From contig MFFY01000061.1 of assembly GCA_001778055.1 (NCBI GenBank), positions 515-64,514 on the forward strand: a DNA stretch of 64,000 bases. Reading direction: 5' to 3'. This document shows, in pieces, positions 5,353-59,415 of the stretch; position 1 is the first letter of the stretch; the number at the start of each line of letters is the position of its first letter. Source of the DNA: Candidatus Falkowbacteria bacterium RIFCSPLOWO2_12_FULL_45_13 (lineage in GTDB: Bacteria > Patescibacteriota > Patescibacteriia > Patescibacteriales > GWC2-42-12). Position numbers and translations under genes: made by a program. A model generated the notes under the pieces. The model made no database searches and had not been told where the DNA came from. It worked only from the letters and a program-made list of their open reading frames with translations.

Positions 5353-5558
5353 TATTAATCCTCTGTTTGTTGATGTTGATTGCGTTTATTGCAGGTTGCA
5401 AATATTCTTCCGCAAGTTAAAGGATAGAGTATCTAAAACCTGCAATAATTAGCTAATCTTATTTAATTTTAAGGTACGATGATTAACTTTGATTTATACC
5501 ACAAAAATTAATTAATGTCCAGACCGAAAATTAATCCAAAATCGCAAATCATAAATTC

Positions 5559-7199
5559 TTAGATGCCTCTGGCTTCTCCCTGATCCGGAGAGCCAACTTT
5601 TTTACCCGGCCAACGGCGTTTCAAAGATGACCAAAAGTTAAATAATTCCTCGCTTTTTAAAGTCAAACAAACTAAAACATAAACAAAAATTCCCGCCAAA
5701 CCGGCAACTAGGCCTTGAGTTAAAACGCCCCAAAATCTGGTCATGTCAATATTGGCGCCGATAATTAATTTCACGCCCTGAACCGCCAGCCCGGCCGCCA
5801 AAGCGGCTAATAAAAATTTTATGGTTGAAACAAATATTTTAATTTCATCTAACCAGCCAATCTCCAGATTCAGCCACAGCCAAAGCAAAATCAAGTTCAT
5901 GACGCTGGCCAGAGAAAAGGCCAAAGCCAAACCAGCGACGCCCAGGCGGTCGGACAGCCAAATTGATAAAAAAATGTTGGCTAACGCCGCGATCAGGCCG
6001 ATGATAAAAGGAGTTTTAGCCGTCAAACGGGCATAAAAGACGCGAACCAATAGCGGAATCAAGGCTTGGGCGAAAAGCGACAAGCAAAAAAAGCCCAGAG
6101 TATCAATCGTCAGAACCGTGTCCTGCCAATCAAACTGGCCGGTGCCTAAAATAACCCTGATAATTTGCGCGCGCAAAGCCAGCAGAATAACGGTGGCCGG
6201 TATGATAAAAAACAATATTTGCCGTACCGTTAAAGACAGGTCTTTAACCAAAATTTTTTTATCAAAAGCCGCGGCCGACATGGCCGGAAAGGCGGCGATG
6301 GCGAAGGAAATGCCGAAAATGCCCACCGGAAAAGACTGTAAATTGTTGGCTAGATTGAACACCGCCAGCGACCCGCTGGCCAAGGTTGAGGCGATAATAG
6401 TAATAACCAGTAAATTTAGCTGCGAAATAGCCAGGCTCATGGTCCGCGGTACCATCATCAGCCAAATTTTCATGACTTTCTCGCTTCTAAAATTAAAACT
6501 TAATTTATACTTAAAGCCAAGTTGAATCAGGGCAGGAAGTTGAATCAGCAGATGAGCCAGAGCGCCCAGGCAGACGCCCCAGGCCAAACCGTAAATTCCC
6601 CAGCTTGGCGCTAAAAATAAAGCGCCGATAATAATGCCGATATTATAAAAAATCGGCGATAAGGAATAAACAAAAAATCTTTTAAACGATTGCAAGACGC
6701 CGCCGCAGACGCTGGAAATACCTAAAAAAATCGGCGATAAAAACATTATTCTTGATAAATTTATGGTCAAGGCCATTTTCTCCTGATTAAATCCGGGAGT
6801 AATCAGCTTCATAATTTGCGGAGCGAAAATCACGCCCAAGCCACATAAAATTATGAGCCCGACGGTTAAAATGTTTAAGACGTTGCTGGTTAATTCCCAG
6901 GCCTCTTTATACCGATCGCCAAATAAAGAGCGGACTTTTTGCAGCGGTCCGTTAATCAATGAGGTGAAAATCGGAATAAAGCCGGCCGACAGCGCCCCCA
7001 ATATAAGCAAATTAAAAATTAAATCCGGGACGCGGAAAGCCGCGTAATAAATATCCAAAGTATCGCCGGCGCCAAACTGACCGGCTAAAATCCGATCGCG
7101 AAAAATTCCCAAAAAACGGCTGATTAAAGAAGATCCGCCGACCAGCAAGGCGGCCATGGTGATGCTGTTTATTTCGCCATTGAGCAGACGTTTGATCAT
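5559..7199 (-). CDS. murJ: Lipid II flippase MurJ (MviN family)
   Basis: 546 aa polytopic membrane protein. N-terminal motif LISRFLGIFRDRILAGQFGAGDTLDIYYAAFRVPDLIFNLL is typical of MurJ. Confidence 0.9.
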   Translation of the reverse strand: MIKRLLNGEINSITMAALLVGGSSLISRFLGIFRDRILAGQFGAGDTLDIYYAAFRVPDLIFNLLILGALSAGFIPIFTSLINGPLQKVRSLFGDRYKEAWELTSNVLNILTVGLIILCGLGVIFAPQIMKLITPGFNQEKMALTINLSRIMFLSPIFLGISSVCGGVLQSFKRFFVYSLSPIFYNIGIIIGALFLAPSWGIYGLAWGVCLGALAHLLIQLPALIQLGFKYKLSFNFRSEKVMKIWLMMVPRTMSLAISQLNLLVITIIASTLASGSLAVFNLANNLQSFPVGIFGISFAIAAFPAMSAAAFDKKILVKDLSLTVRQILFFIIPATVILLALRAQIIRVILGTGQFDWQDTVLTIDTLGFFCLSLFAQALIPLLVRVFYARLTAKTPFIIGLIAALANIFLSIWLSDRLGVAGLALAFSLASVMNLILLWLWLNLEIGWLDEIKIFVSTIKFLLAALAAGLAVQGVKLIIGANIDMTRFWGVLTQGLVAGLAGIFVYVLVCLTLKSEELFNFWSSLKRRWPGKKVGSPDQGEARGI

Positions 7200-8453: not shown

Positions 8454-10049
8454 CTAAATTAGACTCCGGCCCGTCATCTCGGCCGACTTTTCCAAATTCA
8501 TCAGTTTCAAAATTGTCGGCGCCACATCGGATAATATGCCTTGCGGCTGAACCAGGCTCAAATCTCCGCCGGGCGCGTCTCCTAAAGACAGGCTCTTGCC
8601 TTCATAGTCTTGGCCAACAATTATGAACGGCACGGGGTTGGCCGAATGCTCTTTGTCTATCTGGCCGGTTTGCATATTAAACAAAACCTCGGCGTTGCCG
8701 TGATCGGCGGTAATAAATATCAAACCGGATTTGCTTAAGACAGATTTAACAATTCTGCCCAGGCACTTATCAACCGTTTCAACGGCTTTAGCCGTGGCTT
8801 TTAAATTACCGGTATGGCCGACCATATCGGCGTTGGCGTAATTAACCAAAATAAAGTCATAACTGTCTTGTTCAACCGCCTCAACAACTTTGTCGGTTAT
8901 TTTAACGGCCGACATCTCGGGTTGTTCGTCATAACTGGAAACCGCCGGTGATTGAATTAACACATGGTCTTCGTCGATAGACTTGCTTTCTCGGCCGCCG
9001 TTAAAAAAATAAGTCACATGAGCGTATTTTTCGGTTTCCGCGATCCTTAACTGTTTCAGGCCGGCTTTAGCTAAAATTTCACCGAAAGTATGCCTGATAA
9101 TTTCCTTGGGAAAAACCGTTTCCATGGGTAAACTAATTTCATATTCGGAAAAGCCAGCAAAAAATATTTTCAAGTATTTTTCCCGCTTAAATTTTTCAAA
9201 ACCGGGCAAGACAAAAGCCTTAGCCAGCTGGCGCGCCCGGTCCGGCCGGTAATTAAAAAATATTACCACGTCGCCGTCTTCAATCATGGCCACAGGTTTA
9301 TTATTTTTAACAATTACCGTGGGCATAAACTCTTCGTCGTAAATCTTCTTTTTATAGCTGGCTTCAACCGCTTTCCCGGCCGACTCGTGTTTCTCGCCCA
9401 GGCCTTGCGTTATGGCTTGATACGACTTAGCCGTTCTACCCCAATGATTATCGCGGTCCATGGCATAAAATCGGCCGTGGACCGTGGCAATTTTGCCGAC
9501 AGTCCCTTTAAGAGATCTTTCGATTTCTTGAATAAAATTAATTCCGGAATTGAACGGCGTGTCCCGGCCGTCTAAAATCGCGTGAATATAAAAATTTTTC
9601 ACCTTCTTCTCTTTGGCCATTTCAATCAAGGCTTGAAGATGCTCCAGCGAAGAATGAACCGCTCCGGAGGAAACCAAACCGATAAAATGCAACTTTGAAT
9701 TATGATTTTCCGCCTGTTCAATGGCCTTTAACAAAACTTTATTCTTGTAAAAACTGCGGTCGGCGATCATTTTGTTGATTCTGGGCAAGCTCTGATATAA
9801 AATCCTCCCCAGCCCTAAATTAAGATGGCCGACTTCGCTATTGCCCGATTCGCCCCAAGGCAAGCCCACGCCCTCGCCCGAAGCCACTAATGTGGCGGAC
9901 GGGTACTTGGTTATATAGTTATTGATATTCGGGGTATTGGCCTGGCTAATGGCGTTGCCGGAATAAGGAGTGGTAATGCCCCAGCCATCCAAGACGATCA
10001 GCACGACTGGTTTTGGGCGTAAATTTTGTTCTTTATTTACCATAGACAT
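8454..10049 (-). CDS. gpmI: 2,3-bisphosphoglycerate-independent phosphoglycerate mutase (iPGM), paralog 1
   Basis: 531 aa. VVLIVLDGWG, GNSEVGHLNLGLGR and ADMVGHTG motifs place it in the alkaline-phosphatase superfamily iPGM group. Confidence 0.9.
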   Translation of the reverse strand: MSMVNKEQNLRPKPVVLIVLDGWGITTPYSGNAISQANTPNINNYITKYPSATLVASGEGVGLPWGESGNSEVGHLNLGLGRILYQSLPRINKMIADRSFYKNKVLLKAIEQAENHNSKLHFIGLVSSGAVHSSLEHLQALIEMAKEKKVKNFYIHAILDGRDTPFNSGINFIQEIERSLKGTVGKIATVHGRFYAMDRDNHWGRTAKSYQAITQGLGEKHESAGKAVEASYKKKIYDEEFMPTVIVKNNKPVAMIEDGDVVIFFNYRPDRARQLAKAFVLPGFEKFKREKYLKIFFAGFSEYEISLPMETVFPKEIIRHTFGEILAKAGLKQLRIAETEKYAHVTYFFNGGRESKSIDEDHVLIQSPAVSSYDEQPEMSAVKITDKVVEAVEQDSYDFILVNYANADMVGHTGNLKATAKAVETVDKCLGRIVKSVLSKSGLIFITADHGNAEVLFNMQTGQIDKEHSANPVPFIIVGQDYEGKSLSLGDAPGGDLSLVQPQGILSDVAPTILKLMNLEKSAEMTGRSLI

Positions 10050-10073
10050 TAATTTTAAATTTAAAATTTTTGA

Positions 10074-11714
10074 TTATTTTATTAGATTCTTGCCCGTCAT
10101 TTCTTTGGGTTTTTTAATATTTAACAACTCCAGTATGGTCGGCGCGATATCGCCTAAAACTCCGCCATTTCTTAATTTGACTTTATGGCCAAGGTTTTTG
10201 TTGATTAATACAAAGGGTACCAGATTAGTTGAATGCTCGGTATTGATTTCACCGGTTTTTAAATTAATCATCTCCTCGATATTGCCATGATCAGCCGTCG
10301 CTAAAACTGTGCCGCCGACGTTCAAATAAGCCTTAACAATTTCGCCCAGACACTTATCAACCCCATGGCAGCATTTTATCGCGGCGTCCAGATTGCCCGT
10401 GTGGCCGACCATGTCGGGCGCGGCAAAATTCAAAACCGTAAAGTCATATTTCCAGTCTAAACCCTTTTTCTGGCCAATATAACCCCCCTGCTCCCCTTTC
10501 AAAAGGGGGTGAGGGGGGGTTAAATTGTTGACCACTGCCTCGGTCAACTCCGCCGAACTCATCGTCGGCGTCTGATCATACGATCTGACGTTGGGCGAAG
10601 GCACAAGGCGCCGCCCTTCCCTCGCGATCGGATCGGCATAGCCGCCGTTAAAAAAATAAGTCACATGAGCGTATTTTTCCGATTCGGCGATATATAATTG
10701 CGACAAACCTTTTAGCGCCTGCGGCAAAGTCTGTTTTAAATCGACGCTGGGATAAGCGGTTAAAATACCGTCTAAGTCCGGTCCAAAATCAGTCATGGCC
10801 ACGAACAACAAATTTTTTAATACTTTTTTTCTTAAAAAAGAACCGGGATTTAATCTATCAAAATCTTTTTGCACGAAAACCTTGGCGAATTGCCTGGCCC
10901 GATCCGATCTTAAATTAAAAAAGATAACGCCGTCGCCGTTGCCGATCCGGGGTAAGGGCCGGCCATTTCTGGTGATCACATAGGGCTCAATAAATTCGTC
11001 GCTTTCGCCGCGGTTATAACTTTCCATGATCGCGGCTTCCGGGCTGGCGGCTTTCCGGCCCAAGCCGCTCGTTAAAGCATCATAAGCTTTTTCGGTTCTC
11101 GACCAGGTTTTTTTTCTGTCCATGGCGTAATATCGGCCGACGACGGAAGCGATGGCTTCGCCGTTTTTAAAAACTTTTTGGATATCTTCGACCAATTTCA
11201 AAGAGGCATACCTAGGCGAATCCCGGCCGTCGGTGAATAAATGCAAATAAACTTCCTTGACTTTAGTTATTTTAACCAAAGACAGCAGAGCCAGCAAATG
11301 GTCCGGGTCGCTATGCGCGCTCATGCCATTGGAGATCATGCCCATTAGATGAAGCTTGGATTTATTCTTTTTGACCTGGCGGATCGCCTCGATAAAACCG
11401 GCATTTTTAAAAAAAGTCCCGTTATTAACGCTTTTAGAAATTTTAACTACGTCTTGCTCGACAATTCTGCCGGCGCCAATATTCATATGCCCGGCTTCAG
11501 AATTACCCGATTGGCTCGGCGGCAGGCCCACGGCCTTGCCGGAAGCATTGATTAAAGTATTGGGAAATTTTTTAATCAAGCCGTCCATAACCGCGGTATT
11601 GGCCAAGGTGATGGCATTACCCTGGCTCGGTTCAGCCATGCCCCAGCCGTCTAGGATGACCAGAATCATGGGTAAAACATTTTTAGCTGGCTTATTTAAC
11701 TTTTCTGGTTTCAT
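10074..11714 (-). CDS. gpmI: 2,3-bisphosphoglycerate-independent phosphoglycerate mutase (iPGM), paralog 2 (tandem duplicate, carries an in-frame palindromic insertion)
   Basis: 546 aa. ILVILDGWG, GNSEAGHMNIGAGR and PDMVGHTG motifs. The segment NNLTPPHPLLKGEQGGYIGQKKGLDWK has no counterpart in paralog 1 and is encoded by the palindromic element at 10483-10520. Confidence 0.9.
   Translation of the reverse strand: MKPEKLNKPAKNVLPMILVILDGWGMAEPSQGNAITLANTAVMDGLIKKFPNTLINASGKAVGLPPSQSGNSEAGHMNIGAGRIVEQDVVKISKSVNNGTFFKNAGFIEAIRQVKKNKSKLHLMGMISNGMSAHSDPDHLLALLSLVKITKVKEVYLHLFTDGRDSPRYASLKLVEDIQKVFKNGEAIASVVGRYYAMDRKKTWSRTEKAYDALTSGLGRKAASPEAAIMESYNRGESDEFIEPYVITRNGRPLPRIGNGDGVIFFNLRSDRARQFAKVFVQKDFDRLNPGSFLRKKVLKNLLFVAMTDFGPDLDGILTAYPSVDLKQTLPQALKGLSQLYIAESEKYAHVTYFFNGGYADPIAREGRRLVPSPNVRSYDQTPTMSSAELTEAVVNNLTPPHPLLKGEQGGYIGQKKGLDWKYDFTVLNFAAPDMVGHTGNLDAAIKCCHGVDKCLGEIVKAYLNVGGTVLATADHGNIEEMINLKTGEINTEHSTNLVPFVLINKNLGHKVKLRNGGVLGDIAPTILELLNIKKPKEMTGKNLIK
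10483..10520. repeat. In-frame palindromic element (C5-TGACAAGG-AGGG family) inside the gpmI paralog 2 coding sequence
   Basis: cccccctgctcccctttcaaaagggggtgagggggggt is a near-palindrome. Related copies occur in eno, gap and rarA and at two intergenic sites. Confidence 0.7.
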
Positions 11715-36096: not shown

Positions 36097-36624
36097 GACA
36101 AATAAAACAAGGCTTGTGAATTTCATCAAGGAAAATTCGCTTACCGGGCGGTACTGGCGCGAAGCCATGTCATTAAAAGACTATACCTCGTTCAAATTAT
36201 TTTAAGGGAGGTAGACATGCTCCCCATGCTTTCCGGTAAGCGTCGATCTTTTTAAGCTTGGGTCTGGTTTTGGCGGAACGGTAGACGCACGGACATAGTC
36301 CGGTATGCCACAAGTTGGATTTAACGACATGTCAAGCCCGCATAGCTTGTGCCATTGTGGGTTCAACTCCCATAAGCTAGACCAATTTGGGCCAACGGAT
36401 GACTTTCGAATTTACTGCTAGGGGGTAGCGACCATCCCCGGACAAAACGCATAGTCAGATCCGATCTGACTCCCAAGGGTTCATACCCCAAGGGATATGC
36501 GCGGGTAAATCCGATTGTCTATCCGCTGGCCCCTAATTTGTGAGCATTGATTGCCGATCCTCCCGTCCACGCCCTGACAAAGTGGCCGACAGAAAAGGAC
36601 ATGGCAGGCTGACTCAATGCTCAC
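36097..36624 (+). ncRNA. Candidate structured ncRNA region (about 540 bp, no ORFs, GC-rich): an internal tRNA-like T-arm/acceptor ending ...GTGGGTTCAACTCCCATAAGCTAGACCA at 36384, a preceding tRNA-Leu-like D-arm GGCGGAACGGTAGACGC, and a closed 85-nt hairpin domain at 36540-36624. Identity unresolved (tmRNA, RNase P RNA or other)
   Basis: A putative promoter (TTGCCA, 17 nt spacer, TATATG) lies at about 36060-36095. T-loop TTCAACT with 3' ...ACCA. Terminal 11-bp inverted repeat gtgagcattga / tcaatgctcac. I could not pair a canonical 5' acceptor strand by eye. Confidence 0.3.
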
Positions 36625-36761
36625 TTCCTTAATTAAGCTCACAAGCCGTAAAAAAAATTCACCAAAAATTATTTCGCAGTTTCGCGTATTTAATCGTTAC
36701 ATTATTCGCATATTCACGGCATTCGCTGTATTCGCTTTAAATTCGTTATTTATTCGTATTT

Positions 36762-55008: not shown

Positions 55009-55210
55009 TTAGAATAAGAAACAATAATCAAGAAACAATAACCGAAACCAAGCAAAACATCCAAATTTCAAATTATTATTGTTTGTTGCTTGTATCTTGG
55101 TTATTGGTTATTTTTCACATTTATATTATACCCCATTTCCGCCCTCTTTGACAAATTTATAAAAAAAATTTATTATTATATCAGAATAAAACTAGCTTGA
55201 GCTGGTTTTT

Positions 55211-55425: not shown

Positions 55426-55512
55426 GGGGATGTGTTGGAACTGGTAGACGAGAAGGTCTCAAAAACCTTTGGAAGCAATTCCGTGTGGGTTCGACTCCCA
55501 CCATCCCCACCA
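55426..55512 (+). tRNA. tRNA-Leu (anticodon CAA), class II with long variable arm
   Basis: Acceptor GGGGATG/CATCCCC, D arm TTG-GAACTGGTAGA-CGA, anticodon stem AAGGT/ACCTT with loop CTCAAAA, variable arm TGGAAGCAATTCCG, T arm GTGGG-TTCGACT-CCCAC, then A-CCA. 87 nt. Confidence 0.85.
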
Positions 55513-55636
55513 GCGATTTTTATATCACACTGTGTGTGTATGCTCTGAACGAGCAGGGCGGGCTGGCTTTCTTGGTCTGGTTTCGTTCAGGAGTTTCGGA
55601 TAAAATGAGTTCGAGCCAAACTGTAAAAACACACCA

Positions 55637-55680
55637 AGGAGGACCAAGCCCGGAAGAAGTTTGGTCTTTTTGGACCTTAA
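55637..55680 (+). promoter_or_regulatory. Conserved 45-nt leader element upstream of purD (AAGGAGGACCAAGCCCGGAAGAAGTTTGGTCTTTTTGGACCTTAA); terminator/antiterminator-like alternative hairpins
   Basis: Near-identical copy at 57201-57247 upstream of purB. GGACCAA/TTGGTCT stem followed by a T5 run, and a competing GGTC/GACC pairing. Confidence 0.5.
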
Positions 55681-55736
55681 AAAGATTTTAAAAAACGGTA
55701 AACTTAACCTAACAACAGACAAGAAAGGAACCAGCC

Positions 55737-57080
55737 ATGAACGAAAACGTACTATTGGTCGGCAACAGCGCCCGAGGGCACGCTATCGCGGAAGCGATAA
55801 TCAGGTCAAAGCCAACTCCGGTCTTGTTCGCCTACATGAAAGCCAACAACCCTGGAATAGCGGCCCTGGCGGATAAAGTCCAAATTGGCGGCTACGACGA
55901 TCTGAAAAAAATCACCGGTTTCGCCCGGAGTCAGGGCGCCAGTCTGGCCGTAATTGATTCGGAAGAGCCATTAAAAAACGGCGTGGCTGATGCCCTGGAA
56001 ATAGCCCGGATCCCGGTGGTCGGGCCCGGACAGCTAGAGACCCAACTGGAAACCTCAAAAGCTTTCACCAGGGAACTGATGAAGCAATATAACGTAGCCG
56101 GCAGTCCAAAATCAAAAACCTTTAGGACTATGGACGGCATCGAAGAATACCTGAAGGAAAATATGCCATGCGTTTTAAAGCCGGACGGACTGACCGGCGG
56201 CAAAGGCGTTATGGTCCAGGGCGAACACTTCAATACCGTGGATGAAGCATTGGGAATCTGCCTTGACATTCTGACGCATCGCCCGACGGTGGTGATTGAA
56301 GAAAAACTTGAAGGCGAGGAATTTTCTCTCCAATGTTTCTGCTCCGGCCTGATTGTTGTGCCCATGCCGCCGGTTCAAGATCACAAACGCCGACTGATTG
56401 GCGATCAGGGATTGAACACCGGTAGTATGGGTTCGTATTCCTGCCCTGACCATCTGTTGCCGTTCCTAACGCAGGATGATTTGAACCAGGCCGTGGACAT
56501 TCTGGAGCAGATCGTCCTGGTATTGTACTTAGAAACCGGCGGTTATTACAGGGGCATAATCTACGGCGGTTTCATGCTGACTGCCCCGGGGCTTAAACTA
56601 TTGGAGATCAACGCCCGCTTCGGCGATCCGGAAGCCATCAACGTCTTGTCGCTCCTGGAAACCGATTTCCTAGACATCTGCCGATCTATCACCTGCCCCA
56701 GAAACTATGGCAAGCTCAACCAACTGGACATTAGGTTCAAACCCCTGGCCACGGTGGTAAAATACGTGGTGCCGGTCAATTACGGCCTGCCCAAAAACCA
56801 GTATGTCCAAACAGCCTCTGATGTTATCCAACTCGACAACCCGGGAGAGGCCCGCCTTTATTATTCATCCGTTGCGAGCAAGCGGACCGTCATTCGCCTG
56901 ACCTCTTCCCGCGCCGTGGCGGTCCTGGGAACCGGTTCCGACCTGGCTGAAGCGGAAAGGATCGCCGAACAAGGGACTCGCGCCGTTATCGGAGCGGTGG
57001 ATCACCGTTCGGACATCGGCACGGCCGCGCTTATCGCCAAACGAGTGCGGCACATGGAGAAGTTAAAAAAAACAAAATAA
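55737..57080 (+). CDS. purD: Phosphoribosylamine--glycine ligase (GAR synthetase, ATP-grasp)
   Basis: 447 aa. N-terminal VLLVGNSARGHAIAEA, ATP-grasp core PCVLKPDGLTGGKGVMV, EEKLEGEEFSLQCF, and ARFGDPE. Confidence 0.8.
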   Translation: MNENVLLVGNSARGHAIAEAIIRSKPTPVLFAYMKANNPGIAALADKVQIGGYDDLKKITGFARSQGASLAVIDSEEPLKNGVADALEIARIPVVGPGQLETQLETSKAFTRELMKQYNVAGSPKSKTFRTMDGIEEYLKENMPCVLKPDGLTGGKGVMVQGEHFNTVDEALGICLDILTHRPTVVIEEKLEGEEFSLQCFCSGLIVVPMPPVQDHKRRLIGDQGLNTGSMGSYSCPDHLLPFLTQDDLNQAVDILEQIVLVLYLETGGYYRGIIYGGFMLTAPGLKLLEINARFGDPEAINVLSLLETDFLDICRSITCPRNYGKLNQLDIRFKPLATVVKYVVPVNYGLPKNQYVQTASDVIQLDNPGEARLYYSSVASKRTVIRLTSSRAVAVLGTGSDLAEAERIAEQGTRAVIGAVDHRSDIGTAALIAKRVRHMEKLKKTK

Positions 57081-57104
57081 TATCCCGTTTAAGGGATATA
57101 ATAG

Positions 57105-57157
57105 GGTTTCGATTTAGAACGTATTGCAATGCGTCCTACTGCCGAAACCCTTTTTTT
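57105..57157 (+). terminator. Rho-independent terminator after purD (gggtttcg ... cgaaaccc plus T7)
   Basis: 8-bp GC-rich stem followed by ttttttt. A second small hairpin, atcccgtttaagggat, lies just upstream. Confidence 0.7.
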
Positions 57158-57200
57158 GCTTGCCTTTTCCCAACCTTTGTACTAACATTTAATCAAACAT

Positions 57201-57247
57201 AAGGAGGACCAAGCCCGGAGTAGGTTTGGTCTTTTTGGACCTTAACA
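57201..57247 (+). promoter_or_regulatory. Second copy of the conserved pur leader element (AAGGAGGACCAAGCCCGGAGTAGGTTTGGTCTTTTTGGACCTTAA), upstream of purB
   Basis: Differs from copy 1 at only 3-4 loop positions. Located about 100-150 nt upstream of the purB start. Confidence 0.5.
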
Positions 57248-57350
57248 ATCCTACCAAAGGTTTTCGGGAGAAAAAACAAACCCCATACCAGGCTTGGTGT
57301 GGAGACAAACCAGACAACAACTATAACAAAAAAGAGAAAGCGAGAAAGTC

Positions 57351-58826
57351 ATGCATAAATTACTGGAAACAGTCATTAGCCAAAATCTGCCGACGGTGTC
57401 AAAACTGCCTGGCAGAAACCTGCAGATGCCGGGCGACCCCCGCTATCAGCCCGAGGCGCTTAAACCGTTCTTGGGCTACGACATGTGGGCTTCGTTCCTG
57501 ATAATCGTGGAATGGTTCTGGCTCATGACACTAGCGGAAATTGGCTTCATGCCGCGTAAAGAAACGGCCGGGTTAACCCGTGAGCGGCTGTTGAATCTGC
57601 TCGAGAACATTTCTACCACTGTTCAAGACGCCCGAGAATACGGCCGGGATGGACGAGCAGGAACTAACCACGACATCCTGGCCCTGTTGGAACTGATGAA
57701 ACGGTATTTGCCTAAGGCGCTGCATAAATACTTGCACCTGGGCGCGACCTCATACAACATCATCAATACGGCCTACGCCTTGATTTTAGCGCAAGTATTT
57801 CAACGGGTCTTTAAGCCGAAACTGCTGGTCGTGGATCAGGTTTGGCGGGACAAAATCAGCCAGTACGCCGAGGTTGTACAAGCAGGCCGGACTCATCTGC
57901 AAACTGCTCTGCCCGTAACCGTTGGCTTCTGGCTGGCCTGCCTGCATTATCAGTTTAGAAACTGCGTCCAAAACGCTTACTTTCTGTCCATGATTGTTCC
58001 GGGAAGTTTCAACGGCGCCGTGGGCACTTCAGCCGCGCTCCTGGCCATGCTCGGAAGAGACAAAGCCATAATGGCGCAAGAGACGCTGATGAAATACCTA
58101 GACTTGGAGAGAGCGGAGTATACTACACAAATTTCCCCGCCCCAGGATGCGGCCCGCTTCTACTTTGAGCTGTTGCTGCTGTCGGGGGTGCTGGGTAATT
58201 TGGGCGAGGATGTCCGCATCCTGCAGTCATCGGAGTTCGGCGAAATTGTCAGCGCCACCGAGGTTAATTCTTCTTCATCCACTATGGCTCATAAAAAGGC
58301 CAATCCGATCAAGGCGGAAAATAACTGCGGCATGCACGTCAATGTCATCGCCGAGGTCATGAAAGTAGCGCTGACGCTGACGAGCGACCTGCAAAGAGAT
58401 TTAAGGTGGTCCTGCGTTATGCGCAGTTTCAGCTCGGCCATGGTCTACGCTTACCAGCAGATCAGCACCACCGAGAGGCTGATTAAGTCGCTGGCCGTTG
58501 ACCCGCGTCGGGTCAAAACCAACTTCAGGAGAGAAGCCAAGCTGGTCGTGGCTGAACTCTTGCACTTGTGCTTGCAACGGCAGGGATATGCCGGTACGCA
58601 CGAACTGGTCAACAAAACCATCGTGCCGGCGGCTGCTGCTAAAGGTATCAGCCTGCCCTTAGCCATGCGGTATCACCTGCAATCTCATCCGGACAAAAAA
58701 CTCGAACAAGCCTGGCGGTTAACACCGGCAAGCTCGCTTGAGTTGCTCAAGCGCCCGGAAAAATACATCGGCCGGGCAATTGAATTGGCCAAAGCCGAAG
58801 CCAAAAACAAACTGGAAATGGAATAG
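57351..58826 (+). CDS. purB: Adenylosuccinate lyase (fumarate-lyase superfamily); the true start may be the internal MPGDPRYQ
   Basis: 491 aa. Fumarate-lyase signature SSSTMAHKKANP, N-terminal RYQPEAL pattern, GATSYNI motif. Confidence 0.8.
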   Translation: MHKLLETVISQNLPTVSKLPGRNLQMPGDPRYQPEALKPFLGYDMWASFLIIVEWFWLMTLAEIGFMPRKETAGLTRERLLNLLENISTTVQDAREYGRDGRAGTNHDILALLELMKRYLPKALHKYLHLGATSYNIINTAYALILAQVFQRVFKPKLLVVDQVWRDKISQYAEVVQAGRTHLQTALPVTVGFWLACLHYQFRNCVQNAYFLSMIVPGSFNGAVGTSAALLAMLGRDKAIMAQETLMKYLDLERAEYTTQISPPQDAARFYFELLLLSGVLGNLGEDVRILQSSEFGEIVSATEVNSSSSTMAHKKANPIKAENNCGMHVNVIAEVMKVALTLTSDLQRDLRWSCVMRSFSSAMVYAYQQISTTERLIKSLAVDPRRVKTNFRREAKLVVAELLHLCLQRQGYAGTHELVNKTIVPAAAAKGISLPLAMRYHLQSHPDKKLEQAWRLTPASSLELLKRPEKYIGRAIELAKAEAKNKLEME

Positions 58827-59118
58827 ATAACCTAAAACCGAACAACCCCGAACCGCCCCGCCGGGAATTAAAACCCCGGCGGGGTAAACCACAAACCAGG
58901 AAAGAAATAGGAGAAAACACAAAATGAACCAAAAAATGCTCCGCGCCCGAACTGCCAGCAGAGATCGTTCAAAAAACCAGCGAAAAATACCTGGAAGCGC
59001 TTAGACGCTTAAGCAAGGTACTGGCGAAATAGGCGGGGCTTACGCCAAGGCTAGATTTTAGAGAGTAAACAACACGCGGCCTCTCCATGATGGAGAAACT
59101 GCGGCGAGGAGGATTAAA

Positions 59119-59346: not shown

Positions 59347-59379
59347 CTTAAGCTGAACTTTTAAAGGAGGACAACGCGA

Positions 59380-59415
59380 AAGGACACTTGTCTAGGCAAG
59401 TGTCCTTCTTTTTAT
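59380..59415 (+). terminator. Rho-independent terminator (aaggacacttg-tctaggc-caagtgtcctt plus T-run), bidirectional between convergent genes
   Basis: 11-bp perfect stem followed by cttttta. Confidence 0.7.

Follow-up and report, generated by a model that had tools for sequence, protein, structure and literature searches.

Several nucleotide-biosynthesis genes are controlled by attenuators in their leaders, such as the Bacillus subtilis pyr operon with PyrR, the reiterative-transcription attenuator of pyrG, and Escherichia coli pyrBI. Bacteria of the candidate phyla radiation (CPR), known only from uncultured members with very small genomes, are generally described as lacking de novo nucleotide synthesis, and to our knowledge almost nothing is known about how their genes are regulated. 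Here we describe a leader element of about 45 nt that precedes purD and purB in a 64,000-nt stretch (hereafter the window) of contig MFFY01000061.1 from Candidatus Falkowbacteria bacterium RIFCSPLOWO2_12_FULL_45_13, and that recurs before purine genes in related genomes. The element joins a Shine-Dalgarno (SD)-like box to a terminator-shaped RNA hairpin, and we tentatively read it as a transcription attenuator. Two described RNAs come close to it in position or in one of its parts. The purD RNA motif of epsilon-proteobacteria is structured, lies upstream of purD, and is presumed to be cis-regulatory, and no ligand was found for it (Weinberg et al. 2007, PMC1950547). The STAB-SD of Bacillus thuringiensis cry3A is an SD-like GAAAGGAGG near the 5′ end of a long leader (PMC4113751).

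Like the purine, ZTP, phosphoribosyl pyrophosphate (PRPP), and preQ1 riboswitches, which often come with a terminator platform, the element would be a cis-acting RNA before purine-related genes; unlike them, it has no Rfam match and no separate aptamer domain, and its conserved unpaired nucleotides are few and generic. It differs from the purD motif in sequence, structure, and phylum, gives no Rfam match at E ≤ 10, and is found before purB and purH as well. Rfam 15, whose families include the purine riboswitch (RF00167), ZTP/pfl, preQ1-I/II/III, PRPP/ykkC, and the purD motif, returned nothing but tRNAs at the gathering score over the whole window and 11 relatives' loci. At E ≤ 10, no plus-strand match fell over the element in 55510-55760 or 57080-57370, and the best matches were unrelated, sub-threshold, and mostly on the minus strand. 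A first-pass annotation, made from the letters of the window, had likewise seen no resemblance to the purine, ZTP, or preQ1 riboswitches. Literature searches found no described purine leader RNA or riboswitch in Patescibacteria/CPR bacteria.

With STAB-SD the element shares an SD-like sequence near the 5′ end, here (U)AAGGAGG, that complements the 16S rRNA 3′ end without directing translation; unlike in STAB-SD, this box is joined to a terminator-like hairpin whose U-run is invariant, has a CCUU tail to match it, and is found at purine genes only. As in pyr-type leaders, a putative intrinsic terminator stands in the 5′ leader and is repeated before successive cistrons (pyrR-pyrP-pyrB in the pyr case), with read-through as the presumed control point. 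Unlike those leaders, the element's terminator would start about 5 nt into the transcript and has a perfect SD box in its 5′ arm, and inspection revealed no upstream antiterminator or anti-antiterminator, no PyrR-type loop, and no leader peptide. From the 5′ end to the U-run there is space for one hairpin only, and its loop is unconserved, so that the architecture departs from the PyrR type. By these comparisons, the element appears to resemble the nucleotide-operon attenuators and, in part, STAB-SD, while being a member of neither by sequence or architecture; we regard it as an uncatalogued RNA motif of an already known kind, the cis-regulatory leader terminator.

Two copies in the window and their distribution in relatives

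The two copies share the block AAGGAGGACCAAGCCCGGA-(AGAA/GTAG)-GTTTGGTCTTTTTGGACCTTAA on the plus strand, at 55636-55680 and 57201-57245. They are identical at 42 of 45 positions (the sole differences lie at 55655, 55656, and 55658), and their identity sets in exactly at AAGG and ends at CCUUAA. A 36-nt pattern matched the window twice, against 0.00 expected from 100 shuffles, and a covariance model run with filters off found no third copy in the 64 kb, the next match reaching 15.2 bits (scores of the two copies in Table 1). The near-identity pointed out by the first-pass annotation is thus real and has no match elsewhere in the window. It probably reflects recent local gene conversion, to which the nearly identical within-genome copies of three genomes point (0.89, 0.80, and 0.98). 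Since similarity was high in just three of eight genomes, namely the window's, L007, and L022 (L numbers denote relatives' loci), we rejected a general concerted evolution of the copies, or their co-evolution with a factor.

Between copy 1 and the purD start (55737) there are 56 nt, and between copy 2 and the purB start (57351) there are 105 nt. The first-pass annotation had called these the only two purine-pathway genes of the window, and they are indeed its only intact ones. Pfam scans found no other among about 58 other open reading frames (ORFs), which include glycolysis, translation, cell-envelope, pilus, hydrogenase, and replication genes, and tblastn with relatives' PurC, PurE, and PurH gave a single match, a purC 3′ remnant after purB. 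Because the window has no intact purE, purC, or purH, its purine pathway looks partly decayed, with purD, purB, and their leaders intact. The remnant, at 58925-59031, aligns with the C-terminal ~25 residues of L007 PurC and is preceded by stop codons; relatives carry intact purE and purC at this site.

PurD of the window is encoded on 13 metagenome contigs, and its nearest homologues, 57-68% identical, are those of uncultured bacteria that carry the labels Parcubacteria, Patescibacteria, or Falkowbacteria. Their syntenic locus holds dnaE-parB-parA, a divergent tRNA-Leu(CAA), purD, purB, often purE and purC, and a convergent TPR gene. In total we found 23 copies of the element in ~13 related uncultured genomes, each upstream of purD, purB, or a split purH, and none at any other place in the roughly 530 kb searched. 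A strict pattern search of one genome per species (596 Gb) matched five metagenome-assembled genomes, at pur-locus copies alone, plus one chance match inside a Nitrospira coding sequence, and viral contigs gave no pattern match. A covariance model, R1, built from 18 copies and run on 524 kb of relatives' loci, found no copy away from pur genes and turned up the copy upstream of split purH in L051. The purH association then held as a prediction in L060, a locus absent from model building, where copies precede purH (40.5 bits) and purB (51.8 bits) in the order tRNA-Leu, element, purH-N, purH-C, terminator, followed by promoter, element, purB, purE, purC. The element therefore tracks pur genes under changed gene order, purH coming first in L051 and L060 and purB standing alone in L018. 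The first-pass annotation had proposed a motif search for a link to nucleotide-metabolism genes, and had named two outcomes that would speak against its idea, a motif upstream of many unrelated genes and an absence of compensatory changes. The copies found are upstream of purD, purB, and purH only, none precedes an unrelated gene, and compensatory changes are present.

More distant PurD loci (identity ≤56%, plus L024 at 62%) carry no element. In L024, purD lies amid unrelated RRM, NUDIX, and superoxide dismutase genes without the leader element, while L060, from the same metagenome, has the element with purH-purB-purE-purC and no purD; if L024 and L060 are one genome, purD was relocated and its leader lost.

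The element appears to lie always at or near the 5′ end of a pur mRNA. At least 13 copies are found 12 nt past the −10 hexamer of a conserved promoter (TTGCNT, 17 nt, TAAYNT) that comes after the strong terminator of the preceding gene, and the same 12 nt separate the −10 end of the window's purB promoter from AAGGAGG. At these promoter-linked copies we infer that the element starts ~5 nt from the transcript start. In L007, L009, L011, L023, and L051 it starts 1-6 nt past the tRNA-Leu 3′ end, a distance that grows to ~40 nt in L060 and ~120 nt in the window. In L009 the tRNA promoter is the only strong plus-strand promoter upstream of purD, so that purD transcription must run through the hairpin. 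In L003, a strain variant with a Bro-N gene upstream, homology to the window resumes 4 nt before AAGG. Because the element adjoins either the predicted transcript start or the tRNA 3′ end, there would be no room for an aptamer upstream of it. The promoter itself seems to be of the lineage's ordinary type, as the same TTGCC-T-rich −35 style is also found at gyrB, and we rejected a special regulated promoter on this ground.

An RNA hairpin with a U-run, an SD-like box, and a CCUU tail

We aligned 21 copies by hand (alignment A3) and passed them through MAFFT with N as gap; MAFFT and the first covariance-model alignments mis-registered the GGACC and GGCC types, and the hand alignment was used instead. 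The hairpin has 9-11 bp and −7 to −17 kcal/mol. In this alignment 98.2% of its cells are paired, a percentage inflated by fitting the alignment to the structure, and five pairs show double changes. None of 500 shuffles reached the observed values, pairing dropped sharply when the partners were slid, and RNAalifold recovered the same hairpin. Ten copies contain an A-U pair of which both partners are missing in the other 11. Even the raw sequences display the double changes (CCAAGCC/GGUUUGG, CCGAGCC/GGCUUGG, UCAGC/GCUGG, CUAGAACC/GGUUUAG). G.U and A.U alternate frequently and would be C.A mismatches on the opposite strand; this one-sided alternation assigns the structure to plus-strand RNA rather than to a DNA palindrome, and the comparison thus argues for an RNA-level structure on the gene strand.

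A run of four to six U's stands directly 3′ of the stem in 21 of 21 aligned copies, and four U columns are invariant. C never stands opposite the G's that face the run (pair 16-47: GU in 16 copies, AU in 5), so the U's appear to be selected as U's. A stable hairpin containing G and C with an immediate U-tract on the transcribed strand is the sequence signature of an intrinsic terminator. The hairpin also has the covariation-supported conserved structure expected of a riboswitch, which is weakly supported for the outer helix described below. The loop (4-9 nt) and the bulge 3′ of the stem (4-8 nt) vary in sequence and length.

Parts of this architecture had been anticipated by the first-pass annotation. 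Its three blocks are present (GGACC at 55641-45, GGTC at 55663-66, and GGACC at 55672-76), and its terminator-like GGACCAA/TTGGTC stem with U5 proved to be a real hairpin with compensatory changes. The 13-nt loop that it drew is in fact 7-9 nt long, as two or three further pairs (GCC/GGU) form and covary in relatives. Its competing GGUC/GACC pairing did not survive: it shows no double change, its pair 46-58 is broken in 9 of 21 copies, and shuffles score equally. A pairing of the CCUU tail with AAGG of the 5′ box fits better than this alternative.

The 5′ box reads AAGGAGG, with variants UAAGGAGG in four copies and AAGGGGG or GGGAGG in three. It forms a 7-8 nt complement to the canonical 16S rRNA 3′ end, which may not be the lineage's own. 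AAGGAGG is kept as a sequence although A would pair better with U, and in 15 of the 16 copies whose 5′ arm includes the box no start codon follows at a distance of 3-13 nt. These genes have shorter genuine ribosome-binding sites (GGAG, AGGAG). The window holds five AAGGAGG on its two strands together, and the three outside coding sequence are all within the pur locus. The sequence features of STAB-SD, an SD-like box near the mRNA 5′ end that is unused for initiation, are therefore present, with the anti-SD taken as canonical.

Downstream of the U-run, the bulge takes forms such as GGA, GAA, GG, and AUGUA, followed by CCUU and AA, and conservation among the unpaired letters is confined to AAGGAGG, the U-run, one G, and CCUU. 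Pairing of CCUU with AAGG would close an outer helix around the hairpin. Among the 17 copies with a 5′ purine box, that is, excluding the four directly tRNA-linked ones (purD of L009, L011, and L023, and purH of L051), the energy needed to impose this helix is 0-1.5 kcal/mol in 13 and 3.0-6.1 kcal/mol in 4, and it belongs to the minimum-energy fold in 5. The pair flanking the helix is A-U in 5 copies, U-A in 4, and C-G in 2, with 10 mismatches. In L009, L011, and L023 an (A/C)AGGAGG sits at the junction of loop and 3′ arm, with AUG 10-11 nt further on. Beyond the element, each leader continues for 25-130 nt as A/C-rich sequence with no apparent structure. A natural variant, the L013 purB leader (5480-5560), has lost the loop, the 3′ arm, and the U-run and retains the promoter, the AGGAGG box, the UUUAACAA tail, and the second hairpin that purB leaders carry; it amounts to a ready-made terminator-less allele.

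Proposed attenuation and the competing readings

Taken together, the comparative evidence establishes an RNA-level, terminator-shaped structure, its 5′ location, an orphan SD box selected as sequence, and a link to pur genes only. For the package as a whole we put forward, tentatively and short of calling it probable, a lineage-specific 5′-leader attenuator in which read-through is set by the state of the AAGGAGG box and the CCUU tail acts as a clamp after read-through. The first-pass annotation had offered a riboswitch or an attenuator, and of the two the attenuator is the better half; a riboswitch is neither shown nor favoured.

In such an attenuator, the hairpin of 9-11 bp with its U4-6 would stop part of the transcripts ~45 nt after the start. 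The base of the 5′ arm overlaps the (U)AAGGAGG box that serves no start codon, and the box supplies the lowest stem pairs, which should matter most for termination. Occupancy of the box would decide read-through, because an occupant would keep these pairs, next to the U-run, from closing. The obvious and most likely occupant would be the 16S rRNA 3′ end of a free 30S subunit, with a dedicated RNA-binding protein as an alternative that fits the data equally well. In read-through transcripts, CCUU would pair with AAGG into a clamped 5′-terminal structure of outer helix plus hairpin, which would hide the orphan SD and should slow decay from the 5′ end; the element may thus also stabilise the mRNA.

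Several points weigh against the attenuator. It asks us to infer termination, its modulation, and the modulator, in addition to the transcription start site, and the feedback logic from free 30S subunits or a protein to purine supply is hypothetical. The hand alignment inflates the pairing percentage of the hairpin, and the complement to the box is the canonical anti-SD. All copies are found in a single syntenic locus, and common descent via local duplication explains part of the apparent purine specificity. The outer helix is just 71% paired, with an invariant core, and in the four directly tRNA-linked copies the 5′ box is degenerate and the AAGG/CCUU helix is unfavourable by +3 to +12.7 kcal/mol. 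Additionally, a boxless hairpin with a U-run, here E0, stands between the promoter and the essential tRNA-Leu. E0 is without the AAGGAGG and CCUU boxes and otherwise has the same architecture as the pur leader; it also occurs in L009 (3743-3804), L023, and L060 (~1460-1530), 11-12 nt past the −10, in the conserved form AAAACURGC-N4-GCUGGUUUUUAU plus U5, and the L009 example is a weak R1 match (13.8 bits). Because E0 precedes an essential tRNA gene, such elements cannot all be efficient terminators in this lineage, and its presence favours a leaky terminator or a stabiliser.

The element could thus be a non-regulatory 5′ mRNA stabiliser, whose stem-loop and orphan SD hold a 30S subunit and block 5′-end-dependent decay in the manner of STAB-SD, the U-run being incidental or just a weak pause. 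STAB-SD acts in this way in cry3A mRNA (PMC4113751). The always 5′-terminal position (after a transcription start or after tRNA processing), the 7-8 nt complement to the canonical 16S 3′ end without a start codon, and the boxless hairpin heading the tRNA-Leu transcript would all suit this function. We consider it rather unlikely all the same: the invariant U-run after the stem is a terminator signature for which a stabiliser has no need, both conformers keep the greater part of the SD box base-paired, and the restriction to pur genes is left unexplained, as the window's ribosomal protein, EF-Ts, glycolysis, and gyrB genes, where a generic stabiliser would be expected, carry none.

A bolder proposal, which we find doubtful, is that the element is a new purine-pathway sensor, either a minimal riboswitch class or an "SD-decoy" attenuator responsive to how many 30S subunits are free. 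In the SD-decoy version, whenever GTP-dependent initiation stalls, idle 30S subunits would bind the emerging AAGGAGG, the terminator would be blocked, and purine synthesis would be switched on. In the minimal-riboswitch version, the terminator hairpin, 3′ bulge, and AAGG/CCUU helix would bind a purine intermediate.

More generally, a small-molecule riboswitch would treat the hairpin, the 3′ bulge (U-run, G, and 1-3 nt), and the AAGG/CCUU helix as a compact aptamer. Its ligand might be guanine, hypoxanthine, PRPP, 5-aminoimidazole-4-carboxamide ribonucleotide (ZMP), glycinamide ribonucleotide (GAR), or a nucleotide, and its binding would tip the equilibrium between the AAGG/CCUU helix and the extended stem of the terminator. 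The two conformers are indeed near-isoenergetic and both involve the U-run, the structure is conserved and covarying, and the element is linked to purine genes only; as no known family is matched, it would be a new class. However, there is no aptamer space upstream of the terminator, and the CCUU tail is made only after the termination point and so cannot influence the decision. Both loop and bulge are variable in sequence and length, and the conserved unpaired letters are merely the SD box, the U's, and CCUU. A translational platform is not evident either, since the motif lies 25-130 nt from the start codons and has no conserved pairing to the real ribosome-binding site. Gene association alone is insufficient, as the epsilon-proteobacterial purD motif bound no purine compound tested (PMC1950547). 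We judge a small-molecule riboswitch unlikely.

Descent alone could also have produced the pattern, if an ordinary terminator or insulator without sensing, formerly that of tRNA-Leu, was duplicated locally or spread by gene conversion to the promoters of purB and purD within one syntenic locus and kept only by descent. In L007, L009, L011, L023, and L051 the element does lie within a few nt of the tRNA-Leu 3′ end (~40 nt in L060), and the single locus and the near-identical copies in three genomes agree with such a route. We regard this history as quite improbable for an element that follows pur genes in reordered loci (L051, L060, L018) and whose boxes outside the hairpin are kept across genomes with PurD only 57-68% identical to the window's. 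In L013, moreover, tRNA-Leu has an unrelated terminator while purD keeps its promoter and motif. Insulation is impossible ~5 nt past a promoter, and purD already has a strong terminator just upstream of the purB promoter.

The next candidate, a translated mini-ORF of the leader-peptide type, would start at an AUG or UUG where the U-run ends and would rely either on the SD box, drawn near by the hairpin, or on a second GGAGG in the loop. An AUG or UUG stands in the same register just past the U-run in 20 of 21 copies, and every AUG copy also has a loop GGAGG 10-13 nt upstream; however, UUG arises trivially from a U-run followed by G, and L051 has UAG at the start position. The candidate ORFs begin after the terminator, run for 3 to 91 codons, contain no purine-related regulatory codons, and conserve codon 2 position 3 and codon 3 positions 2-3 (C-N-UU), the opposite of coding constraint, all of which makes such an ORF highly improbable. 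A coding frame through the motif ending at TAA was rejected by inspection, as it has no start codon. Least credible of all is a DNA operator, with the inverted repeat GGACCAA...TTGGTC bound by a dimeric repressor as a roadblock: the repeat lies just past the promoter and its half-sites change together between genomes, but many G.T pairs alternating with A.T one-sidedly break DNA symmetry and are sensible only as plus-strand G.U, the arm spacer varies from 4 to 9 nt, and the element also occurs after a tRNA without a promoter.

Under the attenuator or any of its neighbours, this clade keeps a partial pur cluster in which each transcription unit is headed by the same uncatalogued RNA element, a concrete, synthesisable candidate regulatory RNA and a candidate for Rfam. 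If it is gated, the combination of SD box, terminator, and anti-SD-like clamp would add a new coupling of ribosome or metabolite status to transcription. If it is merely a leaky terminator and stabiliser, it is a simple conserved marker of the clade's pur locus. A new sensor, if real, would be the first regulatory RNA described for CPR nucleotide metabolism.

Feature coordinates and other observations of the locus

Table 1. Positions in the window of the leader element copies, their parts, and neighbouring features
Feature	Position	Strand	Details
tRNA-Leu unit promoter	55148..55210	+	TTGACA 55148-53, 17 nt, TATTAT 55171-76
Hairpin E0	55188-55209	+	AAAACUAGC-UUGA-GCUGGUUUU + U-run, 11 nt past −10
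tRNA-Leu(CAA)	55426..55512	+	ARAGORN and Rfam
Leader element, copy 1, upstream of purD	55636..55680	+	61.1 bits
Copy 1, SD-like box	55636-42	+	AAGGAGG
Copy 1, hairpin	55640-55668	+	5′ arm 55640-50, loop 55651-57, 3′ arm 55658-68
Copy 1, U-run, bulge, and tail	55667-78	+	U-run 55667-71, bulge UUUGGA 55669-74, CCUU box 55675-78, then AA
purD, phosphoribosylamine-glycine ligase, 447 aa	55737..57080	+	Pfam GARS_N/A/C; homologues
Putative strong intrinsic terminator after purD	57104..57157	+	GGGUUUCG...CGAAACCC then U7; hairpin kept in relatives
Predicted purB promoter	57160..57188	+	TTGCCT, 17 nt, TAACAT; same hexamers and spacing in relatives
Leader element, copy 2, upstream of purB	57200..57245	+	65.6 bits
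Copy 2, SD-like box	57200-07	+	UAAGGAGG
Copy 2, hairpin	57205-57233	+	5′ arm 57205-15, loop 57216-22, 3′ arm 57223-33
Copy 2, U-run, bulge, and tail	57232-44	+	U-run 57232-36, bulge 57234-39, CCUUA 57240-44
Second small hairpin, purB leader	57254..57267	+	CCAAA-GGUU-UUCGG, after tail AACAA
purB, adenylosuccinate lyase family, 491 aa	57351..58826	+	Pfam Lyase_1 + ASL_C
Orphan box, then terminator	59364-59413		AAGGAGGAC box; AAAGGACACUUG...CAAGUGUCCUU + U-run

The terminator after purD is predicted to insulate purD from purB. By inspection, the second small hairpin is confined to purB leaders and takes a CCCC-N-GGGG form in relatives. The box and terminator at 59364, considered as a third copy of the element, were unrecognised by the covariance model and rejected as such; they are a conserved end-of-cluster terminator. 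This end-of-pur-cluster terminator, AAAGGACAC...GUGUCCU-U-run, is conserved in L007, L009, L013, L014, L022, and L027, each time with a GGAG-like box ~15-20 nt upstream.

Between tRNA-Leu and the purD leader, L007 (3827-3925) and L023 (3844-3925) carry a duplicated 3′ fragment of a second tRNA-Leu allele, and L003, the strain variant of the window's organism, has its Bro-N gene (765-1250) in the same interval, which looks like an integration hotspot. Short palindromes CCCCYUU-N-AAAGGGGG are found in intergenic regions of the window at 10493, 42468, and 62969. Relatives have intergenic palindromes CCCCUCCUUU...AAAGGAGGG (L007 5420-5490; L013 and L014 upstream of purB), often between the purD terminator and the purB promoter, and these intergenic palindromes may form a family of repeats like the repetitive extragenic palindromic (REP) sequences.

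Elsewhere in the window, two tandem cofactor-independent phosphoglycerate mutase paralogues lie at 8454-11714 and an IS200-like transposase gene at 1901-2299. A tRNA-like sequence at 36230-36390, with the acceptor GGUCUGG/CUAGACC, a D-arm, a T-arm, and a long insert, received no ARAGORN call and matched no Rfam model even at E ≤ 1. It is followed by a ~250-nt gene-free, G+C-rich stretch (36390-36650) upstream of rpmE.

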